DNA of 64,000 nt, from the NCBI GenBank assembly GCA_004431415.1, contig QPMI01000408.1:62001-126000 (forward strand). The letters are read 5' to 3'. Below the pieces are notes generated by a model. It saw only the letters and a list, made by a program, of their open reading frames with translations. It searched no databases and was not told the DNA's origin. Source of the stretch: Cyanophora paradoxa CCMP329. Taxonomy: Eukaryota; Plantae; Glaucophyta. Positions 2,548-63,912 of the stretch are shown piece by piece (position 1 is the first letter of the stretch; the number at the start of each line of letters is the position of its first letter). A program made the translations under genes and the position numbers.

Positions 2548-3006
2548 AAAAAAATGAGAGTACCCCAATCACTGTGGGCCCGCCCTCTTTCTCACCCTCA
2601 CTCCTCCAAACCACCCCAACCCACACACTCCAACGCCTTCCAACACACATTCTCTTCCATCCCTTCGTTACGTCTACCACCACAACCTCTCCAAACCAAC
2701 CATCCAGCAACCGCTAGGTAGTATCTAACGTCTAGTCCGATCGATTTTGCAAAAGATATAGCAGTGATTTGAGGCGGGAGCGTCAGCCAGAAGGCTTCCT
2801 GCTCTTCGAGCCCCAAAGCGCTGGTCTCGGAATAATCTTCAACATCATCCAGACGTTAATTGTGTGTATTTCGAATCTAAAAAACAAAGAGGTTTCAAGG
2901 GTTATGCTACACGTAATTACTATATCATCGGAATCTAATTACATACTCGAGTTCAGGTTCTAGCTAGACGCTAATTATTCCCACCGATGACGTAGTCCAA
3001 GTTTAG
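2548..3006 (+). repeat. A1 left TIR (459 bp)
   Basis: Near-perfect reverse complement of 12798-13256. Confidence 0.95.
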
Positions 3007-3607
3007 TGAAACCACTTAACATTGGTTTGTATTCGATCGACGGCCCGACAGGATCAGCGCTGCTAGAGGCGATGCGCAAGATCGATGTGTTTGCTACAGG
3101 TAATTCGCTAGCATTCTCATCCACCTCGGGGATTGCGACGATCGTCTTAGCAGGAACAGCAGATGATGGAGGAGAAAGCTTTTTATCAATTTTGGTCTTA
3201 GCAATCGGTTCGTTTAAAATCTTGTTTTCCATTTTAGTCTCAACCGCTATACCAGCAATAAGATCACCAGCACGCTTCTTTGAAATTGTTTTCAACCCAG
3301 TCACTGTTTTAATGAAATATCTGCTACGATTACCAGTCTCTGATACATACAGCGGACCATCGTCAGTATCCTTCAGTTTACTAGTTTTGCTTTTCTTTGT
3401 CCGCGAATTTGGGATATTATCTAGAATAGCGTTTTCGTCGGCAGTAAGAGCAAAATCGATAGACGCACCCTCACCACCAGCAGTCCGACGAACTAAAGGA
3501 TAGGATTCAGTATCACCGCTCAAAAATTCAATATTATTCTTTTTATTGGGTGAGTTTGTAAGTTTTCTAGAAGCCGAAGGCAAGTAGCCACTTGTGCTAC
3601 GCACCAT
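2975..3607 (-). CDS. Lys-rich 210-aa protein, candidate virion core protein
   Basis: ATG at 3607 (MVRSTSG); same protein in A2 and A3; homolog in B (39117-39866) at the same position. Function is inferred. Confidence 0.7.
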   Translation of the reverse strand: MVRSTSGYLPSASRKLTNSPNKKNNIEFLSGDTESYPLVRRTAGGEGASIDFALTADENAILDNIPNSRTKKSKTSKLKDTDDGPLYVSETGNRSRYFIKTVTGLKTISKKRAGDLIAGIAVETKMENKILNEPIAKTKIDKKLSPPSSAVPAKTIVAIPEVDENASELPVANTSILRIASSSADPVGPSIEYKPMLSGFTKLGLRHRWE

Positions 3608-3677
3608 TTGTTTTAAATAAGGAACAGAAAAAAGTCGACAGACAAGCTGCCTCGGCTGCGCATTCGCGAAAGTGAAT

Positions 3678-4553
3678 TTAAGCAAAACTGCGATCAAACG
3701 GATGAAACTCACTATCTGTGTTTCTGATTGACGAGCGAAGTGATGCCTTTGTGTATGAAGAATCTTCAATTTCGAACTCGATAACGAATGAGAATTCAGT
3801 GTTAATAGCTGCAGTAAATCCATTAAAATAACGTATTGACACATCAAGTTGTTCTAACTCAGAATTATGATCGACGGAAACAGGAACACGTTCATCAGAT
3901 GTATATTTGATAAGCTCTCCAAATTTCGCATCGATATGAATCTTTGCCAACGATGTGTTTGTCCAGTTATTTATTGTGTGAATCGAACCACGAATCTGAT
4001 CGATATGTAGGAAGAGATAAGTATGATAAAGAAGATCAACAGGTATATCGCCAACGATAGCAAACGCATAATCAACAGCATCAACTGTGATTGGAGTATC
4101 CAGCTGTTCTGCGGAATCTGTAACAGCCTTTGTGAAGCCGAGCAGATTTGCGAGTTCAAGAGTGGAAAACGTCAGAGTAAACTCCGATTCACACAAGATT
4201 GTGATTTTCATTGAAACATCATCAAAAACCGTTAAGAACTTGCGTTGGTAAGTACTCCCCAAATAACTGTATTGTTGTGTTTTCAAAAGAACGTTCATAT
4301 AATTCGTAAGAGATGTTGGAGTATATGATCCAGCTCGAAATAGGTTCGTTCTGGTTTTAAATACATTGCTAGGATCGAGCGTAATGGTTGTTATTGAAGC
4401 ATCAGCAGCTAGATTATACATATTGTGAAAAAGTTCTAGCGATTCAATTCTAGCCGACTTCACGTTTGCTAACGCCCGAGGCAGATTAATTTTGAAATTC
4501 GAGGACGTGCCTTCGAACCGATCTCTAGAATCAACATTTACGCGGAGTTTCAT
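3678..4553 (-). CDS. Putative minor capsid (penton) protein
   Basis: N-terminal VDSRDR..SSNF...L....NV...YN pattern typical of PLV/NCLDV pentons; divergent from the major capsid gene; homolog in B. Confidence 0.75.
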   Translation of the reverse strand: MKLRVNVDSRDRFEGTSSNFKINLPRALANVKSARIESLELFHNMYNLAADASITTITLDPSNVFKTRTNLFRAGSYTPTSLTNYMNVLLKTQQYSYLGSTYQRKFLTVFDDVSMKITILCESEFTLTFSTLELANLLGFTKAVTDSAEQLDTPITVDAVDYAFAIVGDIPVDLLYHTYLFLHIDQIRGSIHTINNWTNTSLAKIHIDAKFGELIKYTSDERVPVSVDHNSELEQLDVSIRYFNGFTAAINTEFSFVIEFEIEDSSYTKASLRSSIRNTDSEFHPFDRSFA

Positions 4554-4597
4554 CTTTACAACAATATACGTGAAAATATTCTGTAATATAATATCAA

Positions 4598-5827
4598 ATG
4601 GCGCAAGCAGGAACTACTCTGAAAGAGCTCCTAACAACCAAAGGATCGAACGAGCTTTATCTATCGCCAGGTCTAACTGTCGGTGTTAGCCCAAAGTTTA
4701 AGCCTTTCCTTGAGACGATCCGTCCGCGAGGCAACTCATACGGATTCGCACAGACTGCTGCTTTCGACCTTCCGCGCAAGCAACTTCTAAATGGCGTCTC
4801 CCTATATTTTAAGGTAACAGTCGCTGGTGGAGCTGCCGCTTCGGTTCTTCCTAATGGTGCTGGTGCATTTATTGAAAACGTACGCTTTGTTCATGGATCT
4901 TTCAAAATGGTAATTCCCGGTGATTGGCTTACAGTGAACGCACTGATTGATAACAGCGTCGCATCCGCCCAAGCTTTTGCTAGCAGCTACGGCTTTGGAA
5001 AAGACGCAGCTCTAGAGATTCTCGATGCTAGCCGAGAGTACGTGCTGAAGATCCCATCACAGCTTTGGGACAATTCATATTTCCCTCTGCTAGCACTTGC
5101 GGATATGCCAACCGTCGAGATTGACTTCCGTTCGGCTGGTGTGATTGGAACTGTTGCTGATGCTATTGCGACTCTAACGGATTGTGCCCTGGTTTGTCAG
5201 TTCGTGAATATTCCTAGCGAAGAGGCAGAGTCTATGCTAAAATCTGCGAACGAGTCTGGCGGTATTAGAATTCCCTTTACTGAAATCATTTCAAAGCGCT
5301 CACGCCAGCTTAAGACGGACGACGCAGGAAACGCTGTCGAAATATCCCTTGCTAACGTTAGCGGCCTTGTGCACGCGATCCTGATGACAGTGCGTAATGC
5401 GAATCACCTGGGCACTCGCAATCATAATTCATTTGCCGGTAACGGTAACGCTTTGAAGATTGATTCGTTTGAGATCATGCATAATAATCGCACTCTCGAT
5501 ATCAGTAATAAGCCAATCTCTGGATTTGTTTCGAGCTGCTATCATATCCCAACTCAATATCGCGGAGCAACAACTGGTAATTCAGCCCTTGGTTTTGAAG
5601 ACGGAAATGTCTATGGTATTGTGCTTTCGAAATCTGGCAAAGACTCCCTCCACAACGCTGTCCTCGGCTACACAGACTTCTTCAACTCAAGCAGCAGCTA
5701 CTGCTCCCTCACTGTCACCGGATGTACAAACACCGCACCAGTTGTAGTCGATTTTCACGTCCTGCGCCACAACGTTCTCGTAATTAATTCATATCAAATG
5801 TCGACTCTAAAAGTAAGTAACTTTTAA
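4598..5827 (+). CDS. Putative double jelly-roll major capsid protein (MCP)
   Basis: 409 aa, beta-rich; FDLPR..LL..V.LYF and FIENVRF....IPGDWL resemble PLV/NCLDV MCP N-termini; lies between the penton and ATPase genes. Confidence 0.8.
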   Translation: MAQAGTTLKELLTTKGSNELYLSPGLTVGVSPKFKPFLETIRPRGNSYGFAQTAAFDLPRKQLLNGVSLYFKVTVAGGAAASVLPNGAGAFIENVRFVHGSFKMVIPGDWLTVNALIDNSVASAQAFASSYGFGKDAALEILDASREYVLKIPSQLWDNSYFPLLALADMPTVEIDFRSAGVIGTVADAIATLTDCALVCQFVNIPSEEAESMLKSANESGGIRIPFTEIISKRSRQLKTDDAGNAVEISLANVSGLVHAILMTVRNANHLGTRNHNSFAGNGNALKIDSFEIMHNNRTLDISNKPISGFVSSCYHIPTQYRGATTGNSALGFEDGNVYGIVLSKSGKDSLHNAVLGYTDFFNSSSSYCSLTVTGCTNTAPVVVDFHVLRHNVLVINSYQMSTLKVSNF

Positions 5828-5828
5828 A

Positions 5829-6533
5829 ATGGATATCAAATTGTTTGATCCAGCAGAAGTAAAACTTCCTAAACGGTTCTTGTTTGTCGGCCCCACCAAC
5901 TCGGGCAAAAGCACCTACGTAAAACACGTATTAAATGCTGTAGCAAATCAGCTAGACGATATTTACGTCTTCAGCACAACGGCATTTACAGAACAGTGGG
6001 ACGATACCACTCGCAAGAGCAATATTTATGAAGAATGGGATACAGTTTTGGTTGAAGAACTTTTAGAACGTCAAAAAGAAAGACGACGCAAGAAAGATGA
6101 TCGAAAAATAGCAATTGTTTTAGATGACTTGCTTGATAATGACCTAGTAAACGTCCACAGTGACCGATTAATGCAAAAGCTTTTTACTAGCGGAAGACAT
6201 TACAATATATCGCTCTTTATCACGACACAACGTCTATGTGGCATTAGTCCGACGATTCGGCGAAATTGCGAATATGTATGCTTTTCGTCGATTCTATCGA
6301 ATATTAAAGAGTTCGATTGCGTCTTTGCCGAATACAACGCCGGAGCGAGTCGAGCAGTTTTAATGCGTCTTTTCCTTGAATGGGGTCATTCGTATCAGGT
6401 TTTGATATTTGAAGCCGCGACCGTGGACCGCGTCTACTCTGTTGATAAATCTTCTGGAGATTTTTCGGCTCTATCAAGCTTTTTACACGCAAGAAAGCGG
6501 CCCGGTCGAAAGCCGGCAACCAATCTTGTCTAA
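5829..6533 (+). CDS. A32/FtsK-like genome packaging ATPase
   Basis: Walker A GPTNSGKS, Walker B IVLDD, GRHYNISLFITTQ motif. Confidence 0.93.
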   Translation: MDIKLFDPAEVKLPKRFLFVGPTNSGKSTYVKHVLNAVANQLDDIYVFSTTAFTEQWDDTTRKSNIYEEWDTVLVEELLERQKERRRKKDDRKIAIVLDDLLDNDLVNVHSDRLMQKLFTSGRHYNISLFITTQRLCGISPTIRRNCEYVCFSSILSNIKEFDCVFAEYNAGASRAVLMRLFLEWGHSYQVLIFEAATVDRVYSVDKSSGDFSALSSFLHARKRPGRKPATNLV

Positions 6534-6672
6534 GCAACCAACTAGTATATTCTGGTTTAGCTGAGGCAATCCACAAATAGCTTGCGCCCTTGTAAATGCC
6601 GAAGCTGATGCAGTGACATTGTGAAAGTTGTGATCTCCCCGGCCAACATATTTCTAAATCTTCAATATCCAT
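6304..6672 (-). CDS. Small protein with an FG.YKG...P.Y..WL motif (DUF3820/ExoX C-terminal-like)
   Basis: ISFGIYKGASYLWIASAKPEYTSWLL; open in all three A copies; 3' part overlaps the ATPase gene antisense. Confidence 0.55.
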   Translation of the reverse strand: MDIEDLEICWPGRSQLSQCHCISFGIYKGASYLWIASAKPEYTSWLLRQDWLPAFDRAAFLRVKSLIEPKNLQKIYQQSRRGPRSRLQISKPDTNDPIQGKDALKLLDSLRRCIRQRRNRTL

Positions 6673-6701
6673 CAAAAAGATAAAGGGTGTTATTCCTTCA
6701 A

Positions 6702-7235
6702 TTAAACCTGTGGAAAGTTCAGACGCAGGAACGGCTTATCATCTTCACTTGTGTGTTCTAGAGCGTAAGCATCACGAGCACGAGCAGCTTCTTCTGCAGT
6801 TGAGAAATTGCCAATGTGCTTTTGGCGGTCATTTATCTTATAGTATGCTTTCCATTTACCATGTTGCTGATGGAAGCTGACGCCAATGTATCCACTCGAG
6901 TTATTTCGCCGCCGATTCTGGTTGAGCTGCTGCTGTCGCTTTGTTGCAAGCCGCAGATTCTCGCGGCGGTTATCAAGCTTGTTCAGATTTATGTGATCGA
7001 CAGTTAAACCGTTCTCCAACTCGCCGCTGATGTAGTTATGCAAGAACACACACTTATGATTGATTTTGGCTCGAACATATCCATTGTCCAAACTCCAGCG
7101 AAATCCCAGCACACGCTCAGCGTCATCCTGTGACACAAGTGCATAGGCAACTACGACTCCATTTCGACCATTCCTACGACCAGTAATTGGAATTAGAGCA
7201 ACACCTTCAGGGACATCAGGAATTGCGACCTCCAT
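6702..7235 (-). CDS. HNH endonuclease-AP2 domain protein
   Basis: VDHINLNKLDNRRENLR (HNH) followed by SSGYIGVS...KWKAY...IGNFSTAEEAARARD (AP2). Confidence 0.92.
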   Translation of the reverse strand: MEVAIPDVPEGVALIPITGRRNGRNGVVVAYALVSQDDAERVLGFRWSLDNGYVRAKINHKCVFLHNYISGELENGLTVDHINLNKLDNRRENLRLATKRQQQLNQNRRRNNSSGYIGVSFHQQHGKWKAYYKINDRQKHIGNFSTAEEAARARDAYALEHTSEDDKPFLRLNFPQV

Positions 7236-7370
7236 ATTTCTTGCGCAGCGAGCTGCTTGTCTGCGACTTTTTCGTTACATTTACAGATTGCAATATATTT
7301 AAGCCTAAAAAGTCGCGCTAATTTGTTATAAAAGGATTTATGTCTCATATTATTGAGATATAAGCGAACA

Positions 7371-7679
7371 ATGAGTTCTGCAGATTATACTGCTGTAAAG
7401 CGTGGCCGTGGACGTCCGCCAAAGGTTCGTCTTTTGACAATGGATTCATATGAACCAAAGAAGAAGGGTCGTAAGCCAATAGAGGTAACACCGGAGATTT
7501 TAGCAGAGCGACGCAGAAAGAATGCTGAACGGAATCGTAAACTACGTCATACGAACGAAACATATCGTTTGAAACAGCTTGCCATCACAGCAAAATATCG
7601 AGCTGAAAATCCTGATCGTATTCGGGAGTACCACAGAAATGCTATTTCGCGTAGATGTCTTGCTAAAGACGTTGCTTAG
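7371..7679 (+). CDS. Small basic AT-hook protein
   Basis: KRGRGRPPK AT-hook and an Arg/Lys-rich helix; conserved in A3. Confidence 0.7.
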   Translation: MSSADYTAVKRGRGRPPKVRLLTMDSYEPKKKGRKPIEVTPEILAERRRKNAERNRKLRHTNETYRLKQLAITAKYRAENPDRIREYHRNAISRRCLAKDVA

Positions 7680-8565
7680 CACCAGCTCTAAGCTTTGGCT
7701 CTCCTGCAATCTCAAGCTTCTTGAGCTCTCGATCCTTCCGGTTTTGGCCGCTGTATTTTTTCGTTTCGATCAATCCCTCGCGTCTCAATCGTCTCTGCTG
7801 TCGCATTTTCACTTCTTCTTTTTCGATTCGTGTTTGATCAGGGAGATCACGAGGTTGACGTATTTCAGATGGTTTAACACGCCTAGAAATTTCCACACCT
7901 TGCTTTGTAATTAACCTAACGCGGTTCTTATCAGCGCCAGCAACTATGTACGTCTCTTTGCTTGGTTTTGCCAGACCCTTCGCAAAAACACTGCTCTTTG
8001 GCTCAAGGATCTGCACCTCCGTGCCAGGTTTAGGCATTTTTGTGTTCTCTCGTTCAATATCGTTCTGTCGCTGTCGCACTTGGTGAAGCTGTTCGGCAAC
8101 CTGTGTATTTTCACGCATCCACGTTGGTGATCGCTCCACGCCAAATGCACTGTGGGCTGTCTCATTGTACGCCTTGACAATTGCCGGCAAACGTGAGAGG
8201 AAATGCGGTGATCCACGTGCTTCAGTGTCAGCTTGGATAAGTGCTCGCAATGTCCTAGCGAACCTGTCGATAATTCCAAGTTTGTTACCTTTAGAAATGT
8301 GGTCATCTTTGGCAACATCAGTGTGTATTTTAAACGAGTTCTCTTCGACCATTGCCCGAATCGCAGCTGTGTTAAAACCGTTGTCGGCGGAGAAACCCCA
8401 GATCCCTGGCAGTTGCTCAATCATTTTTGGAAGTTGTTTGAATGTTTCTATTTTTCGAACGATAGCGAAACGGGTTGCAATTTCTACGGCCGCAAACAGG
8501 CGATATCTCCCAATAAATAATACATCAATTTGCCATGCACCAGGTGGCGCTGTTAGAGTGTACAT
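7663..8565 (-). CDS. Retroviral-type (rve) integrase
   Basis: WQIDV, SADNG, GIIDRFARTLR and YN..AHSA motifs. Confidence 0.88.
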   Translation of the reverse strand: MYTLTAPPGAWQIDVLFIGRYRLFAAVEIATRFAIVRKIETFKQLPKMIEQLPGIWGFSADNGFNTAAIRAMVEENSFKIHTDVAKDDHISKGNKLGIIDRFARTLRALIQADTEARGSPHFLSRLPAIVKAYNETAHSAFGVERSPTWMRENTQVAEQLHQVRQRQNDIERENTKMPKPGTEVQILEPKSSVFAKGLAKPSKETYIVAGADKNRVRLITKQGVEISRRVKPSEIRQPRDLPDQTRIEKEEVKMRQQRRLRREGLIETKKYSGQNRKDRELKKLEIAGEPKLRAGAKQRL

Positions 8566-8574
8566 CCTTATTAT

Positions 8575-11500
8575 TCAGACACGATTTTTGTAATGCCCAA
8601 TAGCCCAGGTGTTGATTTTATCATTATCTAGAAAACGCTTCGTATCTAGCGGATGCAACGCTTGACGAGAGGTATTTTGCAGATATATTTCATGTCGTTT
8701 CGAACGGAAACCGAGAATTCCTTTGATATCATACGATTGTTTTTCTCCTTTTTTTGGGCAGACACACCGGAGGAATACATCCCTTGTGAGTCTGTTGTAA
8801 TATGTTTTTTGAATACCTTTGCACACCTGCTTATCTGTGGAATCTTCACGCGAATAATAGTAAGATTTCGGCCGGTTAGCGATCCACTCTGTCATTTGTA
8901 GACCATGAAGCTCATCCTTGAATAATCCCGGAGTTTTCCCCATCGATCGTAGAGCTCGAACCTCATCGGCTGTCATGCCATCAAAGAATCGATGTGTCTC
9001 TGGGTAGTCGCTAACATCCAGCTCATGCTTGATTGAGCGTAAATCAGCATAGATATCTTTGGTGCGAACCTCGATGATGAGACTGTCAGTATCAGTTCCA
9101 AGTAGCTTAAGCCGATGACCCCAAAGCGGTTTGAGCACCTGATAGTAGAAGCGATACATGTGCAGCTTGGACAATTCGAGAATGACAAATCCACAGTAAA
9201 TTGGTTTATTTAAATTATACTCACTTTTTCGCTTGGAAACGAATACAAGGTTCTCTTCGTACATCACCACCTGCTTCAACCGATTTGGTTCGCTGTTTAT
9301 CTTTGCCAAACGATCACCAGATGTAACAAGCTCGGAGAAACAGTGTTTTCTCACGTTCTCCATCGTCTTTCCGAATACACTGTTATTCATTAACTTGAAG
9401 AGATCCTGTTTGTATTTGTGATCAGCACGCTTGCGTTCACTTGTATTAAGATCGATGAAATCGTTCAGCCACGCACTTTGTTCGTACGATAAAACACGGT
9501 GGATGTTGGTTACAATCATTCCCAGTGTAGTATAAAGCTTAAGCGAACGCCCATCAACAACATAATTCTTCTTTGGCAACAGGTTTGGAACCAATTTTGG
9601 GGTTCTTTCGACTGAAGTAAGCTTTTCGTTGTTAATCATATCCTGCTGTTGTTTCGATAGATGATCTATGGACACGCACATTCGTTCAGGAGCTAGTGGA
9701 TAATCTGAGAAATCATCGTGGAGATGGTCAGGCATGTACATATCAACTTCTAGAGCATAGCCACGAGGACCATCAGCGTCAAGGTTTTCAACGAACTGCA
9801 TAGCATCAACATCTTGATCGAGTTTTTCCCAGCGGAAACCTCCAGTGGGGAGTTTTTGTTTCATAGCAACGCCATACAGATTATTCGCATCAAGGTACAT
9901 CAGCCACGATTCTTTGCCTGTTTTTTCGTAGTTTTGCACACATTCAATCTGGGTTGCTGATTCATCAGCATGCGTATATTTTCCAAATTTCTTTAAAATT
10001 GTCGCTGCTTTTGCTGCTTTCTTTTTATTCTTTGCAATCACTCTTGAACTCATGTCTTTTACGTGTTTCAGGAACTCGTTATCAGCTTTAGCGTATCTCT
10101 TTGATATCATGCTGATGCCACCCCTAATTCCTGATTCTATGAATCTATACATATCTTGTTGTCCCTCGTGAAAAAGCTCAAGCTTAATTCCTGTGCGTTT
10201 AAGAGCAGCTTGCCAAGCGAATCCTGGTGATGATATGAAATAGCTTGGATCTAATCCATACGTTTCCATGCATGTATCACGATAGTTTTCAAATACATCG
10301 GCAAGTAACGAAATGTCAGTATTCATATATTCCATAGTATAGTCTGATATCGTTCTACATGCAAGCTTTCTCCAAACGATCTGAGCATGTGCGTACTCGT
10401 CTTTTGAGCATTTCTTTTGTTTTAGTTCGTTCTTAAAGTATCGACGTACAGGTAGTTCTGTTTCTTGAAAACGTTGCCAGCTTGATATATAGCTATATGG
10501 ATATATCCCCTTGCTTGTCATCAACTCGAATCTAGTATCATCCGGATACATTGTGCGCGTGATCTTCTTCTTCTCCGCTGGGACCGCTTTCGCTAGATCA
10601 TCCAAACTAGCATTCAAATGTTGCATCGAATCACGAAGTACATAAATTCCATACTTAAACTGTGATATCTTCTCGCTATTCTGAAAGGTTTGATCAAATT
10701 TGATCGAAAGGAGACTCTGCGGGCGGAGCCGGCGTTCGAGCCCCTTCTTAACCTTCTTTTTCTGCTCTGGGGTCATCTCACGTCCACCGTACTTGCTTTG
10801 AAACTCACTTTCGACATGTGCTTGAAACTCAGCCCAAGCTGCTGAACGGCGGTTTTTGCCAGATGCTATTGCTCTCACGAACAGGTGAAAGTCAAATCCA
10901 CGACCATTATGAAAGAATATAGGAACAGCAGCAGATTTTGCACGGCGGCGATTGCAAGCACGACAGGCTGCTCCAATGTATTTACCTGTATCATGACAGT
11001 GATCACGGTGCTTGTCTTTGATATCTTTGAACGTGTTTTTGCACATATAACAGTCTGTCGTTGTTTGAAAACACTGTTCCTCTTCCTGAGTAATCTGGAT
11101 TGGTACACTTGCTTTGAGAAGTTCTCTAAATTGTGGTTCCATTTCGTCAAGCCATTTTACGAACTTATCAGCACAGTCTTCATTCTCGGAACCCATACAT
11201 TTAAATGAAAACTGTTCGCCTTTCGAAGATACAACCAGACAGCCGACTGAAGCAATCACATGCAAACCTTTTTTTTCGGTCTTTCCACTAATGCAGGGAA
11301 TCGGCATTGTAATCGTCTCTGAATCAGCATATCCGACCAGACGTTGGCGGATTGTGTACTCATAGTTAATAAACTTCTGGATGTGAGCTCCTTTTTTGGG
11401 CAGAACATCACGTGCGTGTTCATCGCGTTCGAGACAGCGGTCATATTTAAGATGATTTTCAAACGCAACACCTGAGCTAAAACCTGTTTGACACGCAAGA

Positions 11501-12691
11501 CAATAGTGTTTGGCGGGAGAATCATGTTTTCCAAACAGACGTGATATGTTCTTGATCCAGAGATAATGCCCAACATCGTTTCCCTCCCCAGCCGGCACAT
11601 ACAGTATTGGGATTGCGTCTCTCGCAGCACTGATATGGATTGGTATGATATCCTGCTTATCTAGAGCAGTTGTATAAACGCAGAGTTTGACGTTATTTGC
11701 TTGCTCGAATTTGCTGAATACACTCGAATCAAGAGGGGTTGGATATTTAAGCATACTGCAGTCTAAAGAGTCTTCATACGGTCGATAATGACAAGCACTA
11801 CGTGAATCCTGACCTGGTCTTAGCGCGTGCTGGGCTGCAATGATTGAATATTTGAAACATTCATTGTTTGGTGCATCAATATTGATAAGGGCGTGCTTAT
11901 CGGCAAGCCATTTTGGGAGGTTAAACCTACGACCACGACCTCCAATGCGTCGGAAATATTGAACAGTTTTAAAGACCACATATATCCATGTATCGAAAAC
12001 CGATGAATCTCTGCTTTTCTCTGACGCAAGAATGTCTAATTCTTCAAACTGTGAACGCAAGGCTGCCTCAATGCTTGTCCCTGGTTCGATGCGATCGAAA
12101 CGACGATGTTCAATAACGATAGCAATCGTAGAATCTGTCTCTGGCTTTCTGTAGACACCTAATCCAGAGATTTGTAGTGCAATGCCCATTCTTGACGTCT
12201 CTGCAAGATTTACCTGGGCGCTTACGAATGCGATTGCGTTTTGTTTGAAAAGTTCGTTGTTTTCAAATCTGACTTGCATTGATGTTACACGTCCTGATCC
12301 ACGTGGTAGCTGGTATTTCTACTCGACCGTCAAGAGCTGTAGTTGTTTCGTTGTTTATTTGAACATCATCTCCAACATCAACCTCAGGCAGCTCATTGAA
12401 AGCAGCGACAATTGCAGCCTGTCCTTCAGCAATTGCCAGCTCGAGTCGAAGACCTGAAACAGGGCGCGTTGGTCTAGGAAGTCGAGATAGTTCGTTCAAT
12501 AGTGAAGCGTATTTTTCCAACGTTGTATATCTTGTTCTCGATCCTTGCGCTGTAATTCTTAGCAATTTATTTTTGAAGGCACCATGTATGACACGTCGAT
12601 TATACAATGAAGTTGCGAGCGCTTCTATTTGGTCTTTGATTCTGGCCAACCTGAAGCGCCGATTTGCAGCATTATTCTGAGTAACATCCAT
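8575..12691 (-). CDS. Protein-primed family B DNA polymerase (frameshift near 12320)
   Basis: YLDANNLYG, KLMNNSVFGK, GTDTDS; exonuclease motifs YADSE and FHNGRGFD; EndoVII-like DHCHDTG..CN. The N-terminus (12263-12691) is contiguous with the rest in A3. Confidence 0.93.
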
Positions 12692-12797
12692 TGATTAATC
12701 TATATATCACAATTTTTTTGATTATTTTAAACGCAACTTTACATAGCAATATTGGATAGGGATCTCTTTAAGACAAAATAAGAGAAACCACCTGAAC

Positions 12798-40802: not shown

Positions 40803-40854
40803 TCTGTTTAATAAAGCATTTTAAAAATTTCTTTTGGTATTTTAAACATAAGAG

Positions 40855-50861: not shown

Positions 50862-50905
50862 TTGATATTATATTACAGAATATTTTCACGTATATTGTTG
50901 TAAAG

Positions 50906-51781: not shown

Positions 51782-51851
51782 ATTCACTTTCGCGAATGCG
51801 CAGCCGAGGCAGCTTGTCTGTCGACTTTTTTCTGTTCCTTATTTAAAACAA

Positions 51852-54311: not shown

Positions 54312-54381
54312 TTGTTTTAAATAAGGAACAGAAAAAAGTCGACAGACAAGCTGCCTCGGCTGCGCATTCGCGAAAGTGAAT

Positions 54382-55255
54382 TTAAGCAAAACTGCGATCA
54401 AACGGATGAAACTCACTATCTGTGTTTCTGATTGACGAGCGAAGTGATGCCTTTGTGTATGAAGAATCTTCAATTTCGAACTCGATAACGAATGAGAATT
54501 CAGTGTTAATAGCTGCAGTAAATCCATTAAAATAACGTATTGACACATCAAGTTGTTCTAACTCAGAATAATGATCGACGGAAACAGGAACACGTTCATC
54601 AGATGTATATTTGATAAGCTCTCCAAATTTCGCATCGATATGAATCTTTGCCAACGATGTGTTTGTCCAGTTATTTATTGTGTGAATCGAACCACGAATC
54701 TGATCGATATGTAGGAAGAGATAAGTATGATAAAGAAGATCAACAGGTATATCGCCAACGATAGCAAACGCATAATCAACAGCATCAACTGTGATTGGAG
54801 TATCCAGCTGTTCTGCGGAATCTGTAACAGCCTTTGTGAAGCCGAGCAGATTTGCGAGTTCAAGTGGAAAACGTCAGAGTAAACTCCGATTCACACAAGA
54901 TTGTGATTTTCATTGAAACATCATCAAAAACCGTTAAGAACTTGCGTTGGTAAGTACTCCCCAAATAACTGTATTGTTGTGTTTTCAAAAGAACGTTCAT
55001 ATAATTCGTAAGAGATGTTGGAGTATATGATCCAGCTCGAAATAGGTTCGTTCTGGTTTTAATTACATTGCTAGGATCGAGCGTAATGGTTGTTATTGAA
55101 GCATCAGCAGCTAGATTATACATATTGTGAAAAAGTTCTAGCGATTCAATTCTAGCCGACTTCACGTTTGCTAACGCCCGAGGCAGATTAATTTTGAAAT
55201 TCGAGGACGTGCCTTCGAACCGATCTCTAGAATCAACATTTACGCGGAGTTTCAT
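54382..55255 (-). pseudogene. Minor capsid gene of A3 with a 2-bp deletion
   Basis: CAAGTGG at ~54861 against CAAGAGTGG in A1. Confidence 0.8.
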
Positions 55256-55299
55256 CTTTACAACAATATACGTGAAAATATTCTGTAATATAATATCAA

Positions 55300-56529
55300 A
55301 TGGCGCAAGCAGGAACTACTCTGAAAGAGCTCCTAACAACCAAAGGATCGAACGAGCTTTATCTATCGCCAGGTCTAACTGTCGGTGTTAGCCCAAAGTT
55401 TAAGCCTTTCCTTGAGACGATCCGTCCGCGAGGCAACTCATACGGATTCGCACAGACTGCTGCTTTCGACCTTCCGCGCAAGCAACTTCTAAATGGCGTC
55501 TCCCTATATTTTAAGGTAACAGTCGCTGGTGGAGCTGCCGCTTCGGTTCTTCCTAATGGTGCTGGTGCATTTATTGAAAACGTACGCTTTGTTCATGGAT
55601 CTTTCAAAATGGTAATTCCCGGTGATTGGCTTACAGTGAACGCACTGATTGATAACAGCGTCGCATCCGCCCAAGCTTTTGCTAGCAGCTACGGCTTTGG
55701 AAAAGACGCAGCTCTAGAGATTCTCGATGCTAGCCGAGAGTACGTGCTGAAGATCCCATCACAGCTTTGGGACAATTCATATTTCCCTCTGCTAGCACTT
55801 GCGGATATGCCAACCGTCGAGATTGACTTCCGTTCGGCTGGTGTGATTGGAACTGTTGCTGATGCTATTGCGACTCTAACGGATTGTGCCCTGGTTTGTC
55901 AGTTCGTGAATATTCCTAGCGAAGAGGCAGAGTCTATGCTAAAATCTGCGAACGAGTCTGGCGGTATTAGAATTCCCTTTACTGAAATCATTTCAAAGCG
56001 CTCACGCCAGCTTAAGACGGACGACGCAGGAAACGCTGTCGAAATATCCCTTGCTAACGTTAGCGGCCTTGTGCACGCGATCCTGATGACAGTGCGTAAT
56101 GCGAATCACCTGGGCACTCGCAATCATAATTCATTTGCCGGTAACGGTAACGCTTTGAAGATTGATTCGTTTGAGATCATGCACAATAATCGCACTCTCG
56201 ATATCAGTAATAAGCCAATCTCTGGATTTGTTTCGAGCTGCTATCATATCCCAACTCAATATCGCGGAGCAACAACTGGTAATTCAGCCCTTGGTTTTGA
56301 AGACGGAAATGTCTATGGTATTGTGCTTTCGAAATCTGGCAAAGACTCCCTCCACAACGCTGTCCTCGGCTACACAGACTTCTTCAACTCAAGCAGCAGC
56401 TACTGCTCCCTCACTGTCACCGGATGTACAAACACCGCACCAGCTGTAGTCGATTTTCACGTCCTGCGCCACAACGTTCTCGTAATTAATTCATATCAAA
56501 TGTCGACTCTAAAAGTAAGTAACTTCTAA
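55300..56529 (+). CDS. Putative major capsid protein (A3)
   Basis: Near-identical to 4598-5827. Confidence 0.8.
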   Translation: MAQAGTTLKELLTTKGSNELYLSPGLTVGVSPKFKPFLETIRPRGNSYGFAQTAAFDLPRKQLLNGVSLYFKVTVAGGAAASVLPNGAGAFIENVRFVHGSFKMVIPGDWLTVNALIDNSVASAQAFASSYGFGKDAALEILDASREYVLKIPSQLWDNSYFPLLALADMPTVEIDFRSAGVIGTVADAIATLTDCALVCQFVNIPSEEAESMLKSANESGGIRIPFTEIISKRSRQLKTDDAGNAVEISLANVSGLVHAILMTVRNANHLGTRNHNSFAGNGNALKIDSFEIMHNNRTLDISNKPISGFVSSCYHIPTQYRGATTGNSALGFEDGNVYGIVLSKSGKDSLHNAVLGYTDFFNSSSSYCSLTVTGCTNTAPAVVDFHVLRHNVLVINSYQMSTLKVSNF

Positions 56530-56530
56530 A

Positions 56531-57235
56531 ATGGATATCAAATTGTTTGATCCAGCAGAAGTAAAACTTCCTAAACGGTTCTTGTTTGTCGGCCCCACCA
56601 ACTCGGGCAAAAGCACCTACGTAAAACACGTATTAAATGCTGTAGCAAATCAGCTAGACGATATTTACGTCTTCAGCACAACGGCATTTACAGAACAGTG
56701 GGACGATACCACTCACAAGAGCAATATTTATGAAGAATGGGATACAGTTTTGGTTGAAGAACTTTTAGAACGTCAAAAAGAAAGACGACGCAAGAAAGAT
56801 GATCGAAAAATAGCAATTGTTTTAGATGACTTGCTTGATAATGACCTAGTAAACGTCCACAGTGACCGATTAATGCAAAAGCTTTTTACTAGCGGAAGAC
56901 ATTACAATATATCGCTCTTTATCACGACACAACGTCTATGTGGCATTAGTCCGACGATTCGGCGAAATTGCGAATATGTATGCTTTTCGTCGATTCTATC
57001 GAATATTAAAGAGTTCGATTGCGTCTTTGCCGAATACAACGCCGGAGCGAGTCGAGCAGTTTTAATGCGTCTTTTCCTTGAATGGGGTCATTCGTATCAG
57101 GTTTTGATATTTGAAGCCGCGACCGTGGACCGCGTCTACTCTGTTGATAAATCTTCTGGAGATTTTTCGGTTCTATCAAGCTTTTTACACGCAAGAAAGC
57201 GGCCCGGTCGAAAGCCGGCAACCAATCTTGTCTAA
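56531..57235 (+). CDS. Packaging ATPase (A3)
   Basis: Near-identical to 5829-6533. Confidence 0.93.
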   Translation: MDIKLFDPAEVKLPKRFLFVGPTNSGKSTYVKHVLNAVANQLDDIYVFSTTAFTEQWDDTTHKSNIYEEWDTVLVEELLERQKERRRKKDDRKIAIVLDDLLDNDLVNVHSDRLMQKLFTSGRHYNISLFITTQRLCGISPTIRRNCEYVCFSSILSNIKEFDCVFAEYNAGASRAVLMRLFLEWGHSYQVLIFEAATVDRVYSVDKSSGDFSVLSSFLHARKRPGRKPATNLV

Positions 57236-57374
57236 GCAACCAACTAGTATATTCTGGTTTAGCTGAGGCAATCCACAAATAGCTTGCGCCCTTGTAAATG
57301 CCGAAGCTGATGCAGTGGCATGGTGAAAGTTGTGATCTCCCCGGCCAACATATTTCTAAATCTTCAATATCCAT
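57006..57374 (-). CDS. FG.YKG-motif small protein (A3)
   Basis: Near-identical to 6304-6672. Confidence 0.5.
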   Translation of the reverse strand: MDIEDLEICWPGRSQLSPCHCISFGIYKGASYLWIASAKPEYTSWLLRQDWLPAFDRAAFLRVKSLIEPKNLQKIYQQSRRGPRSRLQISKPDTNDPIQGKDALKLLDSLRRCIRQRRNRTL

Positions 57375-57403
57375 CAAAAAGATAAAGGGTGTTATTCCTT
57401 CAA

Positions 57404-57940
57404 TTAAACCTGTGGAAAGTTCAGACGCAAGAACAGTTTGTCTGCTTCAGAAGTATTCTCCAAGACATATGCATCACGAGCACGAGCAGCTTCTTCTGCA
57501 GTTGAGAAATAGCCAACGTGCTTCAGGCGACCATTTATTTTATAATGCGCCTGCCATTTACCACACTGCTGATCGAAGCTAACACCTATGAATCCACTCG
57601 AGTTATTTCGCCGCCGATTCTGGTTGAGCTGCTGCTGACGAGCAGTTGCCACACGGAGATTTTCACGTCTGTTATCCAGTTTGTTCAGATTTATATGATC
57701 AACTGTCAATCCGTTTTCGAGTTCACCCGAGATATAGTTATGCAAAAACACATTCTTTCTATTGATCGTGGTTCGAGCATATCCATAGTTATTTAAACGC
57801 CAGCGAAATCCAAGCATACGCTCAGCGTCATCCTGCGACACAAGTGCATAGGCAACTACGACTCCATATCGACCATTCCTACGACCAGTAATTGGAATTA
57901 GAGCAACACCTTCAGGGACATCAGGAATTGCGACCTCCAT
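57404..57940 (-). CDS. HNH-AP2 protein (divergent allele)
   Basis: Same motifs as 6702-7235 with many substitutions. Confidence 0.92.
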   Translation of the reverse strand: MEVAIPDVPEGVALIPITGRRNGRYGVVVAYALVSQDDAERMLGFRWRLNNYGYARTTINRKNVFLHNYISGELENGLTVDHINLNKLDNRRENLRVATARQQQLNQNRRRNNSSGFIGVSFDQQCGKWQAHYKINGRLKHVGYFSTAEEAARARDAYVLENTSEADKLFLRLNFPQV

Positions 57941-58051
57941 ATTTCTTCTTTTTCGTTACATTTACAGATTGCATTATCTTTAAGCCTAAAAAGTCGCGCT
58001 AATTTGTTATAAAAGGATTTATGTCTCATATTATTGAGACATAAGCGAACA

Positions 58052-58360
58052 ATGAGTTCTGCAGATTATACTGCTGTAAAGCGTGGCCGTGGACGTCCGC
58101 CAAAGGTTCGTCTTTTGACAATGGATTCATATGAACCAAAGAAGAAGGGTCGTAAGCCAATAGAGGTAACACCGGAGATTTTAGCAGAGCGACGCAGAAA
58201 GAATGCTGAACGGAATCGTAAACTACGTCATACGAACGAAACATATCGTTTGAAACAGCTTGCCATCACAGCAAAATATCGAGCTGAAAATCCTGATCGT
58301 ATTCGGGAGTACCACAGAAATGCTATTTCGCGTAGATGTCTTGCTAAAGACGTTGCTTAG
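58052..58360 (+). CDS. AT-hook basic protein (A3)
   Basis: As 7371-7679. Confidence 0.7.
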   Translation: MSSADYTAVKRGRGRPPKVRLLTMDSYEPKKKGRKPIEVTPEILAERRRKNAERNRKLRHTNETYRLKQLAITAKYRAENPDRIREYHRNAISRRCLAKDVA

Positions 58361-59246
58361 CACCAGCTCTAAGCTTTGGCTCTCCTGCAATCTCAAGCTT
58401 CTTGAGCTCTCGATCCTTCCGGTTTTGGCCGCTGTATTTTTTCGTTTCGATCAATCCCTCGCGTCTCAATCGTCTCTGCTGTCGCATTTTCACTTCTTCT
58501 TTTTCGATTCGTGTTTGATCAGGGAGATCACGAGGTTGACGTATTTCAGATGGTTTAACACGCCTAGAAATTTCCACACCTTGCTTTGTAATTAACCTAA
58601 CGCGGTTCTTATCAGCGCCAGCAACTATGTACGTCTCTTTGCTTGGTTTTGCCAGACCCTTCGCAAAAACACTGCTCTTTGGCTCAAGGATCTGCACCTC
58701 CGTGCCAGGTTTAGGCATATTTGTGTTCTCTCGTTCAATATCGTTCTGTCGCTGTCGCACTTGGTGAAGCTGTTCGGCAACCTGTGTATTTTCACGCATC
58801 CACGTTGGTGATCGCTCCTCGCCAAATGCACTGTGGGCTGTCTCATTGTACGCCTTGACAATTGCCGGCAAACGTGAGAGGAAATGCGGTGATCCACGTG
58901 CTTCAGTGTCAGCTTGGATAAGTGCTCGCAATGTCCTAGCGAACCTGTCGATAATTCCAAGTTTGTTACCTTTAGAAATGTGGTCATCTTTGGCAACATC
59001 AGTGTGTATTTTCAACGAGTTCTCTTCGACCATTGCCCGAATCGCAGCTGTGTTAAAACCGTTGTCGGCGGAGAAACCCCAGATCCCTGGCAGTTGCTCA
59101 ATCATTTTTGGAAGTTGTTTGAATGTTTCTATTTTTCGAACGATAGCGAAACGGGTTGCAATTTCTACGGCCGCAAACAGGCGATATCTCCCAATAAATA
59201 ATACATCAATTTGCCATGCACCAGGTGGCGCTGTTAGAGTGTACAT
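58344..59246 (-). CDS. rve integrase (A3)
   Basis: As 7663-8565. Confidence 0.88.
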   Translation of the reverse strand: MYTLTAPPGAWQIDVLFIGRYRLFAAVEIATRFAIVRKIETFKQLPKMIEQLPGIWGFSADNGFNTAAIRAMVEENSLKIHTDVAKDDHISKGNKLGIIDRFARTLRALIQADTEARGSPHFLSRLPAIVKAYNETAHSAFGEERSPTWMRENTQVAEQLHQVRQRQNDIERENTNMPKPGTEVQILEPKSSVFAKGLAKPSKETYIVAGADKNRVRLITKQGVEISRRVKPSEIRQPRDLPDQTRIEKEEVKMRQQRRLRREGLIETKKYSGQNRKDRELKKLEIAGEPKLRAGAKQRL

Positions 59247-59255
59247 CCTTATTAT

Positions 59256-62200
59256 TCAGACACGATTTTTGTAATGCCCAATAGCCCAGGTGTTGATTTT
59301 ATCATTATCTAGAAAACGCTTCGTATCTAGCGGATGCAACGCTTGACGAGAGGTATTTTGCAGATATATTTCATGTCGTTTCGAACGGAAACCGAGAATT
59401 CCTTTGATATCATACGATTGTTTTTCTCCTTTTTTTGGGCAGACACACCGGAGGAATACATCCCTTGTGAGTCTGTTGTAATATGTTTTTTGAATACCTT
59501 TGCACACCTGCTTATCTGTGGAATCTTCACGCGAATAATAGTAAGATTTCGGCCGGTTAGCGATCCACTCTGTCATTTGTAGACCATGAAGCTCATCCTT
59601 GAATAATCCCGGAGTTTTCCCCATCGATCGTAGAGCTCGAACCTCATCGGCTGTCATGCCATCAAAGAATCGATGTGTCTCTGGGTAGTCGCTAACATCC
59701 AGCTCATGCTTGATTGAGCGTAAATCAGCATAGATATCTTTGGTGCGAACCTCGATGATGAGACTGTCAGTATCAGTTCCAAGTAGCTTAAGCCGATGAC
59801 CCCAAAGCGGTTTGAGCACCTGATAGTAGAAGCGATACATGTGCAGCTTGGACAATTCGAGAATGACAAATCCACAGTAAATTGGTTTATTTAAATTATA
59901 CTCACTTTTTCGCTTGGAAACGAATACAAGGTTCTCTTCGTACATCACCACCTGCTTCAACCGATTTGGTTCGCTGTTTATCTTTGCCAAACGATCACCA
60001 GATGTAACAAGCTCGGAGAAACAGTGTTTTCTCACGTTCTCCATCGTCTTTCCGAATACACTGTTATTCATTAACTTGAAGAGATCCTGTTTGTATTTGT
60101 GATCAGCACGCTTGCGTTCACTTGTATTAAGATCGATGAAATCGTTCAGCCACGCACTTTGTTCGTACGATAAAACACGGTGGATGTTGGTTACAATCAT
60201 TCCCAGTGTAGTATAAAGCTTAAGCAAACGCCCATCAACAACATAATTCTTCTTTGGCAACAGGTTTGGAACCAATTTTGGGGTTCTTTCGACTGAAGTA
60301 AGCTTTTCGTTGTTAATCATATCCTGCTGTTGTTTCGATAGATGATCTATGGACACGCACATTCGTTCAGGAGCTAGTGGATAATCTGAGAAATCATCGT
60401 GGAGATGGTCAGGCATGTACATATCAACTTCTAGAGCATAGCCACGAGGACCATCAGCGTCAAGGTTTTCAACGAACTGCATAGCATCAACATCTTGATC
60501 GAGTTTTTCCCAGCGGAAACCTCCAGTGGGGAGTTTTTGTTTCATAGCAACGCCATACAGATTATTCGCATCAAGGTACATCAGCCACGATTCTTTGCCT
60601 GTTTTTTCGTAGTTTTGCACACATTCAATCTGGGTTGCTGATTCATCAGCATGCGTATATTTTCCAAATTTCTTTAAAATTGTCGCTGCTTTTGCTGCTT
60701 TCTTTTTATTCTTTGCAATCACTCTTGAACTCATGTCTTTTACGTGTTTCAGGAACTCGTTATCAGCTTTAGCGTATCTCTTTGATATCATGCTGATGCC
60801 ACCCTAATTCCTGATTCTATGAATCTATACATATCTTGTTGTCCCTCGTGAAAAAGCTCAAGCTTAATTCCTGTGCGTTTAAGAGCAGCTTGCCAAGCGA
60901 ATCCTGGTGATGATATGAAATAGCTTGGATCTAATCCATACGTTTCCATGCATGTATCACGATAGTTTTCAAATACATCGGCAAGTAACGAAATGTCAGT
61001 ATTCATATATTCCATAGTATAGTCTGATATCGTTCTACATGCAAGCTTTCTCCAAACGATCTGAGCATGTGCGTACTCGTCTTTTGAGCATTTCTTTTGT
61101 TTTAGTTCGTTCTTAAAGTATCGACGTACAGGTAGTTCTGTTTCTTGAAAACGTTGCCAGCTTGATATATAGCTATATGGATATATCCCCTTGCTTGTCA
61201 TCAACTCGAATCTAGTATCATCCGGATACATTGTGCGCGTGATCTTCTTCTTCTCCGCTGGGACCGCTTTCGCTAGATCATCCAAACTAGCATTCAAATG
61301 TTGCATCGAATCACGAAGTACATAAATTCCATACTTAAACTGTGATATCTTCTCGCTATTCTGAAAGGTTTGATCAAATTTGATCGAAAGGAGACTCTGC
61401 GGGCGGAGCCGGCGTTCGAGCCCCTTCTTAACCTTCTTTTTCTGCTCTGGGGTCATCTCACGTCCACCGTACTTGCTTTGAAACTCACTTTCGACATGTG
61501 CTTGAAACTCAGCCCAAGCTGCTGAACGGCGGTTTTTGCCAGATGCTATTGCTCTCACGAACAGGTGAAAGTCAAATCCACGACCATTATGAAAGAATAT
61601 AGGAACAGCAGCAGATTTTGCACGGCGGCGATTGCAAGCACGACAGGCTGCTCCAATGTATTTACCTGTATCATGACAGTGATCACGGTGCTTGTCTTTG
61701 ATATCTTTGAACGTGTTTTTGCACATATAACAGTCTGTCGTTGTTTGAAAACACTGTTCCTCTTCCGGATTCATCTGGATTGGTACACTTGCTTTGAGAA
61801 GTTCTCTAAATTGTGGTTCCATTTCGTCAAGCCATTTTACGAACTTATCAGCACAGTCTTCATTCTCGGAACCCATACATTTAAATGAAAACTGTTCGCC
61901 TTTCGAAGATACAACCAGACAGCCGACTGAAGCAATCACATGCAAACCTTTTTTTTCGGTCTTTCCACTAATGCAGGGAATCGGCAATGTAATAGTCTCT
62001 GAATCAGCATATCCGACCAGACGTTGGCGGATTGTGTACTCATAGTTAATAAACTTCTGGATGTGAGCTCCTTTTTTGGGCAGAACATCTCGTGCGTGTT
62101 CATCGCGTTCGAGACAGCGGTCATATTTAAGATGATTTTCAAATGCTTGATCTGAGCTAAAACCGACCTGGCAGGCTAAGCAATAGTGCTTTGCATTTGA

Positions 62201-63382
62201 TTCGTTCTTTCGGAACAGTCGTGAGACGCTCTTAATCCAGAGGTAATGCCCAACATCGTTTCCCTCCCCAGCCGGCACATACAGTATTGGGATTGCGTCT
62301 CTCGCAGCACTGATATGGATTGGTATGATATCCTGCTTATCTAGAGCAGTTGTATAAACGCAGAGTTTGACGTTATTTGCTTGCTCGAATTTGGTGAACA
62401 TCCTCGAGTCAAGCGGTGTCGGATATGTAAGCATTGAGCAGTCCAGCGATGTCTCGTGCTGGCGGTAGTTCCCTGCATGCCGAGAATCAACACCTTCGCC
62501 CAATGGATTGCGAGCAGAAAGGACTGCGTATTTAAAGCACTCGTTGTTCGGTGCATTTATATTGATAAGCGCGTGCTTGTCTGAGAGCCATTTTGGCAGT
62601 ACAAAGCCTCGGCCACGGCCACCAATCCTTCGGAAATAGCGCACAGTTTTAAAGACCAGATACACCCACGTGTCAAATACTGAGGAATCCCTGCTTTTCT
62701 CTTCCGAGATCATGTCTAATTCTTCGAGCTGTGAACGCAAGGCCGCCTCAATGCTTGTCCCTGGTTCGATGCGATCGAAACGACGATGTTCAATAACGAT
62801 AGCGATCGTAGAATCTGTCTCTGGCTTTCTGTAGACACCCAATCCAGAGATTTGTAGTGCAATGCCCATTCTTGACGTCTCTGCAAGATTTACCTGGGCG
62901 CTTACGAATGATATAGCATTCTGTTTGAAAAGTTCGTTGTTTTCAAATCTGGCTTGCATTGATGTTACACGTCCTGATCCGCGTGGTAGCTGATATTTCC
63001 ACTCTGCATATCGCCCGTCAAGCGCTGTAGTCGTAGTCCCGTCGTTGATTTGAACATCATCTCCGACGTCAACCTCAGGCAGCTCGGCAAAGCCACGGAC
63101 GATCTCTGCCTGCCCCTCTGCGATCGCTAGCTCTAGTCGACGACCTGACACAGGACGCGTTGGTCTAGGAAGTCGAGATAGTTCGTTCAATAGTGAAGCG
63201 TATTTTTCCAACGTTGTATATCTTGTTCTCGATCCTTGCGCTGTAATTCTTAGCAATTTATTTTTGAAAGCACCATGTATGACACGTAGATTGTACAATG
63301 AAGTCGTGAGCGCTTCGATCTGGTCTTTAATACGGGCTGACCGGAAGCGCCGAGTCGCTGCATTATTCTGGGTAACGTCCAT
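59256..63382 (-). CDS. Protein-primed PolB (A3), with a 1-bp homopolymer frameshift near 60802
   Basis: Same motifs as A1; CCC where A1 has CCCC in the GIRGG codons. Confidence 0.92.
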
Positions 63383-63485
63383 TGGAAGTATATATCACAA
63401 TTTTTTTGATTATTTTAAACGCAACTTTACATAGCAATATTGGATAGAGATCTCTTTAAGACAAAATAAGATAAACCACCTGAAC

Positions 63486-63912
63486 CTAAACTTGGACTAC
63501 GTCATCGGTGGGAATAATTAGCGTCTAGCTAGAACCTGAACTCGAGTATGTAATTAGATTCCGATGATATAGTAATTACGTGTAGCATAACCCTTGAAAC
63601 CTCTTTGTTTTTTAGATTCGAAATACACACAATTAACGTCTAGATGATGTTGAAGATTATTCCGAGACCGGCGCTTTGGGGGTCCGCCTCAAATCATTGC
63701 TATATCTTTTGCAAGATCGATCGGTCTAGACGTTGGATATTACCTAGCGGTTGCTTGATGGTTGGTTTGGATAGGTTGTGGGGTAGACGTAACGAAGGAT
63801 TGGAAGAGTGTGTTGGTTGGAAGGCGTTGGAGTGTGTGGGTTGGGGTGGTTTGGAGGAGTGAGGGTGGTGAAGAGGTGCGGGCCACAGAATCAGGTCCTC
63901 TCTCATTTTTTT
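63486..63912 (-). repeat. A3 right TIR
   Basis: Inverted relative to the inner unit of the left terminus; the outermost ~45 bp differ. Confidence 0.9.

Follow-up and report, generated by a model that had tools for sequence, protein, structure and literature searches.

Exchange of replication genes between Polinton-like viruses (PLVs) that share capsid genes has been described in several systems. Here we compare these systems with a 64-kb stretch of the Cyanophora paradoxa CCMP329 genome (contig QPMI01000408.1, positions 62,001 to 126,000; hereafter the window, with positions counted from its first letter), in which four integrated Polinton-like elements, A1, A2, A3 and B, combine one family of capsid genes with different replication genes. 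In the accessible portions of the literature, on which all comparisons below draw, Barth, Ha and Aylward (bioRxiv 10.64898/2026.10.13.758929) reported that replication and capsid modules reassociate, using one QPMI01 locus among their material, described a contig whose morphogenetic genes match nucleotide for nucleotide while the replicases differ, and proposed tandem integration and homing endonucleases as mechanisms. Bellas and Sommaruga (bioRxiv 10.64898/2026.06.19.733378) described switches between a protein-primed polymerase of the PolB type (pPolB) and a polB-SF1 fusion as common within one cluster of major capsid proteins (MCPs), and Haro et al. (bioRxiv 10.64898/2026.07.28.741278) found nested elements in Halocafeteria, with replication genes mobile or shared within one genome. 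Recent pPolB replacement on a shared capsid and integrase set was reported within one genome for nematode Polintons by Jeong et al. (bioRxiv 10.1101/2023.08.22.554363). Krupovic et al. 2024 (PMC11161782) described a TP-vOTU-palm-S1H replicase layout in Tlr1 elements, PLVs and transpovirons.

The capsid proteins of the present elements have been catalogued before. Table S2 of Bellas et al. 2023 (PMC10120064) contains, in rows 23 and 24, C. paradoxa MCPs near-identical to those of A and B (judged by eye, they differ at about 6 of some 370 residues and at 10 of some 300), with matches to an ascovirus MCP at an HHpred probability of 97%; P0007 is likewise in that table. Table S4 gives 366 C. paradoxa MCP hits, with two clusters labelled 'new' (272 and 94), and Dataset S1 presents five QPMI01 loci as figure maps. 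Those figure maps aside, the accessible parts of that study provide MCPs and counts but no element-level description of size, ends, replicase variants or breakpoints.

The locus differs from each of these systems. In the papers on mosaicism in Polisuviricotina, the close examples named are PolA/AEP swaps or subtype-level trees; here, in contrast, two pPolB lineages and a pPolB-SF1 fusion occur on one capsid family within 64 kb, with edges defined at base level. In the nematode Polintons, one pPolB class carries an HNH-type insert, pPolB1 and pPolB2 are 16% identical, and a protease and a fusogen are present. In contrast, the A-type pPolBs are 41-55% identical, both carry an EndoVII insert, and no protease was detected among the 30 window proteins scanned with Pfam. 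The B replicase resembles the pPolB-S1H proteins of PMC11161782 in its vOTU-like Cys/His motifs, palm and SF1 motifs, and adjoins an rve integrase; unlike those elements, B has a capsid block 63% identical in MCP to that of a pPolB-using element.

Four elements with one capsid block

Self-comparison, analysis of open reading frames (ORFs) and tblastn identified four copies of a block consisting of 'core' and penton genes on one side and MCP and ATPase genes on the other, plus related integrases. The four elements are AT-rich (41-43% GC) in flanks of 60-68% GC (Table 1). The two terminal inverted repeats (TIRs) of A1 are 459 nt each and 99.8% alike, and those of B are 409 nt, 99.3% alike and end in AG..CT. 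The probability of a chance match is approximately 4e-4 for a 6-bp target-site duplication (TSD) and 1e-3 for a 5-bp TSD. A2 lies in the opposite orientation to A1 and A3 and has a net size of approximately 10.75 kb without B. Its capsid block is split: B is inserted in the A2 MCP gene with an exact 5-bp duplication, a point absent from the earlier, model-generated first-pass annotation of this DNA. B spans 18 kb because it contains a GC-rich insert of approximately 6.5 kb, and its net size is approximately 11.5 kb, the insert ends being approximate. An outer TSD, GCCGGT (24146-24151 and 63913-63918), brackets A2 and A3 as one pair. Both members have a doubled TIR unit on the left, their right ends are 100% identical, and their interiors are opposed, giving the order pPolB...capsid/capsid...pPolB.

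The MCP of 409 aa had no Pfam, PHROGs or convincing PDB sequence match. Its language-model features pointed to capsid clusters at a recognition level below the threshold of the tool, no more than a lead. Searching with a profile built from the A and B MCPs identified four relatives among 1.84 billion representatives, at 21-27% identity. A two-sequence AlphaFold2 model (pLDDT 36.8) was unusable and was not searched; a model built from six sequences (A, B and the four relatives) reached pLDDT 69.6. Foldseek matched the latter model to double jelly-roll MCPs (E = 1.7e-18 for a PBCV-1 capsid chain), with further matches in BFVD, and structural alignment gave Z = 31.9 and an rmsd of 2.8 over 347 aligned residues. 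By its predicted structure, the 409-aa protein is therefore a double jelly-roll MCP, the assignment made in the first-pass annotation, which held once fold prediction and the Foldseek check were run. The A/B profile of the putative penton weakly matched PBCV-1 P1 (E = 0.0031), which we take to be the penton protein of that virus, and the B copy matched viral clusters in the atlas. The ATPase of B matched Pox_A32 with E = 1.5e-15. No family match was found for the 'core' ORF in Pfam or PHROGs; the A1 copy is 38-44% identical to part of the B ORF.

Different histories of capsid and replication genes

We next compared divergence across the modules. The capsid blocks of A1, A2 and A3 differ at 13 of approximately 3,700 columns; the A2 capsid genes are 99.7-100% identical to those of A1 in amino acids, with a synonymous divergence (dS) of 0-0.008 from A1 and A3. 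In contrast, the A2 pPolB is 41-49% identical per tblastn piece to the A1/A3 type (55% over the polymerase part and 43% over the N-terminal part) and dS is saturated. Between these extremes lie the A1-A2 integrase (dS 0.64, 87% amino acid identity), the A1-A3 HNH-AP2 gene (dS 0.60) and the vOTU region of the A1-A3 pPolB (dS 0.58). The nonsynonymous divergence (dN) is far below dS in every diverged pair.

The old divergence in A2 forms one contiguous block of 5.8 kb (25002-30774) comprising pPolB, the small gene, the integrase and the AP2 remnant. Its edges are sharp, one at the inner TIR boundary and the other at the stop codon of the HNH-AP2 gene. Between A1 and A3, 327 of 349 differing columns fall within the HNH-AP2 gene region and the N-terminal part of pPolB. 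The A1 and A2 pPolBs share 54% identity, against 40-42% with that of L001, the sole usable environmental relative, and for this reason the A2 pPolB is, on sequence comparison, more likely an old sister lineage than a foreign import.

On a related capsid block, B carries a pPolB-SF1 fusion that is not orthologous to the A polymerases; its ends also differ from those of A, and the order of the two modules is permuted. Identity between B and A is 63% for MCP, 39% for penton, 41-42% for ATPase and approximately 31% for integrase; for outside comparison, the MCP is 21-27% identical to its four relatives and the ATPase 22-28% identical to that of L001. In B, the integrase and replicase flank the opposite side of the capsid block in unchanged orientation, a circular permutation of the order in A. 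The A-type polymerases, of both the A1/A3 and the A2 type, have kept the exonuclease and palm motifs along with the EndoVII insert. Besides vOTU-like Cys/His and SF1 motifs, the B replicase has palm motif A (D582) and, in changed form (NTD), motif C; all of these are conserved in the five relatives found (24-27% identity). The vOTU-like Cys/His motifs are kept in both replicase types. Matches of the integrases to rve are weak (E = 0.008-0.1), yet they align with the integrase of L001.

These results bear out the first-pass annotation in its main outline: a capsid block with a related integrase present four times, near-identical capsid genes beside a strongly divergent pPolB and rearranged accessory genes in A2, a homologous capsid block with a PolB-like/SF1-helicase fusion in B, and differing histories of capsid block and replicase on two time scales. 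One point can be added to it, and one of its claims was overstated. A1 and A3 do share one pPolB type, but it is not uniform, the differences being concentrated in the two tracts given above. As for the three replication modules proposed, there are three replicase variants on one capsid family but only two enzyme types, the A1 and A2 pPolBs being homologous.

Short-read contigs were then used to examine the A2 configuration. Twenty-four sequencing runs were listed, 17 of them with half or more of the sampled words, and four (X1, X2, X6 and X14) were compared. In this order, contig depth was 662, 1421, 1067 and 1418 for the capsid block, 249, 559, 412 and 579 for the A1/A3-type pPolB, and 347, 657, 481 and 667 for the A2-type pPolB. 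The two polymerase types sum to 84-90% of the capsid depth, and the A2 type alone accounts for 45-52%, in all four runs. Compared with the GC-rich bin at 49300-49790, the A2 type is 2-3 times as deep. From each side, contigs reach over the A2 junction, record 21 of X2 spanning 30208-30804. Loose contig ends at 57410 (X1, X6 and X14) bear the sequence of A2 itself, and those at 63478 bear its TIR-to-pPolB sequence. In the B capsid region the summed depth is above that of the B replicase, a value inflated by overlapping variant contigs from which we draw no inference. At three frame breaks (near 26.7, 31.6 and 60.8 kb), a single gap separates the window from the contigs listed; these breaks are therefore copy-specific or assembly errors. 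Contigs approximately 97% alike to the N-terminal part of the A3 pPolB (62013-62902) reach depths of 698-1581, 2-3 times that of its C-terminal part, and further pPolB donors or chimeras are therefore likely elsewhere in the genome.

Origin of the mosaic pattern

The mosaic of capsid and replication genes was observed directly. We consider it likely, with a probability of roughly 0.75, that these integrated Polinton-like viruses share one capsid block and that co-resident copies exchanged replication genes by recombination. The direction of exchange is not readable from three copies; the A/B replicase replacement is older than the A1/A2 exchange. Under this reading, each element would replicate as linear protein-primed DNA with TIRs, might be packaged, and would integrate by its own rve integrase, with a 6-bp TSD for A and a 5-bp TSD for B. 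The shared TIRs and capsid genes could act as homology arms for crossover or gene conversion, with postulated extrachromosomal intermediates. Cuts by HNH-AP2, a predicted endonuclease, would be a likely trigger at the inner boundary, and end-joined pairs such as A2-A3 are likely substrates for recombination.

Several points weigh against exchange by recombination. The integrase signal is mixed, that of B being 31.5% identical to A1 but 34.3% identical to the unrelated L001. Frame breaks affect three of the four elements (A1, A2 and A3). Contig depth is not copy number, and the four runs share an organism label and year and may represent one campaign. The bridging rule of 31 letters per side was satisfied at the A2 junction by no listed contig (30 letters in X2 and 18 elsewhere), and no bridging of the A2-A3 junction or the B insertion junctions was found among the contig pieces listed. 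Relatives for outgroup comparison are few, with one usable pPolB and four MCPs.

The alternative that fares best holds that the capsid genes moved: two old sister replicons would have existed, and one capsid block with its TIRs would recently have spread over both. It predicts the same pattern as a replicase swap and differs in what moved. The greater closeness of the A1 and A2 pPolBs to each other than to L001 fits a capsid sweep, as do the similar depths of the two pPolB types and the age of the integrase and small gene of A2, which are old as well. Within the A2 block, however, the integrase is younger than the saturated pPolB, and A1/A3 conversion lies inside pPolB itself; replication genes therefore also move piecewise, and we regard the sweep as a tentative explanation that falls short of an even chance.

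A second alternative concerns the A2-A3 pair. Instead of being joined before or during integration, the two could have come together by insertion of A2 precisely at the left terminus of an A3 already in place, duplicating 1 bp (T at 24151 and 52880). The extra T at the junction fits a 1-bp TSD, and TSDs down to 1 bp have been reported for Cafeteria virophages (PMC8547959). Exact insertion nevertheless appears unlikely: A1 makes a 6-bp TSD, a classical double insertion retains the full TSD at the junction (10.1101/158386), which is absent here, and A2 and A3 agree in their doubled left ends and are 100% identical at their right ends.

Finally, it is very improbable that A2 is an assembly chimera in which a collapsed capsid repeat was joined to the polymerase of another element: the near-identity of the A1, A2 and A3 capsid blocks, the mirroring of 53320-55464 by 50697-52843 at 99.7%, the lack of a formally bridging contig among those listed and frame breaks suggestive of imperfect polishing would favor it, but contigs overlap the junction from both sides at A2-polymerase depth, depths add up in four of four runs, the A2 MCP resumes beyond B with an exact 5-bp duplication and the A2-A3 pair has an exact outer 6-bp duplication.

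A more far-reaching form of the exchange reading is also conceivable, though we hold it doubtful: a minimal self-integrating virus family (approximately 10.7 kb, eight genes) with replicase exchange in progress, in which excised genomes would be linked by their ends and then integrate in mixed pairs, an HNH-AP2 homing endonuclease at the module border would drive conversion, two old pPolB lineages would persist near 1:1 on one capsid, and the permuted order of B would stem from dimer resolution with new ends.

Features of the window and place among described viruses

Table 1. Coordinates of elements and genes in the window.
Element	Feature	Position	Strand	Remarks
A1	Element	2548-13256 (10,709 bp)		TIRs 2548-3006/12798-13256; TSD CCCCGA at 2542-2547 and 13257-13262
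A1	Conserved ORF 'core' (label of first-pass annotation)	2975-3844	-	Actual start possibly further downstream
A1	Likely penton (minor capsid protein)	3678-4553	-	Weak A/B profile match to PBCV-1 P1
A1	MCP (409 aa)	4598-5827	+	AlphaFold2 model and Foldseek; near-identical MCP in PMC10120064 Table S2
A1	A32-like packaging ATPase	5829-6533	+	Pox_A32, E = 1.9e-11
A1	HNH-AP2 endonuclease	6702-7235	-	At capsid/replication boundary; HNH_3 and AP2 matches
A1	Small basic protein	7371-7679	+	31% to A2 29166-29456
A1	rve-type integrase, short N-terminus	7663-8565	-	Weak rve match and alignments
A1	pPolB	8575-12691	-	N-terminal region, vOTU-like motifs, exonuclease with EndoVII insert, palm
A2	Element, left part	24152-32723		Doubled TIR unit, pPolB, small gene, integrase, AP2 remnant, ATPase, MCP 3' part
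A2	Divergent pPolB	25095-29135	+	Four frame pieces; 41-55% to A1/A3 type
A2	Small basic protein	29166-29456	-	Other side of integrase compared with A1/A3
A2	Integrase	29555-30481	+	87% aa to A1, dS 0.64
A2	AP2-only remnant	30537-30785	+	Replaces HNH-AP2; junction to shared capsid block at 30775
A2	ATPase and MCP 3' part	30775-32723	-	ATPase with two single-base gaps compared with A1/A3; 99.6-99.8% nt to A1/A3
B	Element, within A2 MCP gene	32724-50696		TIRs 32724-33132/50288-50696; TSD AGCAG (32719-32723, 50697-50701)
B	rve-type integrase	33130-34191	-	
B	pPolB-palm/SF1-helicase fusion, Tlr1-like	34191-38264	-	1357 aa; C-terminal Cys/His domain; SF1 helicase Pfam matches
B	Small basic ORF	38506-38763	-	
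B	Capsid block	39117-42921		'core' 39117-39866 (-), penton 39903-40802 (-), MCP 40855-42081 (+), ATPase 42163-42921 (+)
B	GC-rich insert (67%)	43640-50120		Ends approximate, ~6.5 kb
A2	Element, right part	50697-52879		MCP 5' part, penton 50906-51781, 'core' 51615-52484, TIR 52453-52879
A2-A3	End-to-end junction	52873-52887		7 T, one extra T (52880), 7 A; no target duplication between elements
A3	Element	52881-63912 (11,032 bp)		Left TIR unit doubled; breaks in penton (near 54860) and pPolB (near 60800)

The pPolB of A1 contains one frame break, near 12.3 kb. An extra, diverged TIR unit of approximately 404 nt is present at the left ends of A2 (24152-24993) and A3 (52881-53710), and the B TIR contains an internal direct duplication of approximately 185 nt. 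A hairpin-primed model for the B TIR was rejected: the internal repeat is direct, and folding was no better than for shuffled sequences (z = -0.85; A TIR z = -0.26). No coding gene was recognized in the GC-rich insert of B (43640-50120), which has short inverted ends, 350-nt direct repeats (43640-43989 and 46063-46411) and, at 47741-48978, a tandem array of 147/298 nt. Tandem repeats of 12 nt lie downstream of the B ATPase (43164-43391). Between A1 and A2 lies a GC-rich Ty3/gypsy-like retroelement (13710-20850, minus strand) with reverse transcriptase, RNase H and integrase matches. A long GC-rich open frame (20798-24151, minus strand), without a Pfam match, reaches the left end of A2 and is the apparent insertion site of the A2-A3 pair.

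The integrases of A1, A2 and B read IIDRF where L001 reads IERF, an apparent Asp at the third catalytic Glu; A and B integrases share this residue and a TDV.KDDHI stretch, both absent in L001. The A-type integrases are approximately 55 residues shorter at the N-terminus. L001 (positions 1594-10888 of a 19.5-kb IMG/VR contig) encodes an A32 ATPase and an EndoVII-containing pPolB with an rve integrase directly behind it, which mirrors the coupling of these two genes in the A elements.

MCP relatives were found neither in a 5.8-billion word search nor in viral or metagenome contigs, P0009 being the sole return of the word search with MCP alignment A5. ATPase and integrase scans of the viral contigs, and one pPolB pattern scan there, gave no match. 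These blank searches do not indicate novelty, since near-identical MCPs are already present in PMC10120064 Table S2.

The elements combine a double jelly-roll MCP, predicted from its model, with an A32/FtsK-like ATPase, TIRs, an integrase and TSDs, as in PLVs. For the single jelly-roll penton of PLVs, the putative penton gene, with its weak P1 match, is a candidate. The A elements have the pPolB and rve integrase of Polintoviricetes; an adenovirus-type capsid maturation protease was not found by Pfam, the scan covering all long ORFs of A1 and B (their small basic ORFs were searched with PHROGs), and A1 has no unassigned room for such a gene. The description 'protease-less' in the first-pass annotation stands as an observation, but not as a special trait: a reduced morphogenetic module lacking the protease is typical of Aquintoviricetes (PMC12220804), and the elements fit this pattern. 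Its view that approximately 11 kb is unusually small agrees with a published PLV size range of approximately 14-40 kb. Whether the family had already been described, a point it raised itself, is answered in part: both MCP types are catalogued, and replicase switching within one MCP cluster has been called common. An element-level account of the A/B family, PLVs of approximately 11 kb, an end-joined mixed pair under one TSD, breakpoints at the HNH-AP2 gene and the permuted module order of B were not found in the accessible literature text, although figure maps and bioRxiv supplements may hold an element-level account, PLVs of this size or such a pair.

Taken together, capsid proteins of this kind, replicase swaps on shared capsid modules, tandem integration and the lack of a protease are already known, and the locus is a genuine and well-preserved case of a familiar process, in a family with catalogued capsid proteins. 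With it, the size of complete PLVs that encode capsids falls below the 14-40 kb usually given, while the general picture is unchanged. Replicase swapping in PLVs has mostly been inferred from trees or single contigs; here it is represented by base-level edges, three exchange ages and a candidate intermediate. The mechanisms proposed for it, tandem integration and homing endonucleases, become testable in an alga that is probably cultured. If exchange is indeed in progress, the cultured host would provide a system for watching replicon swapping.

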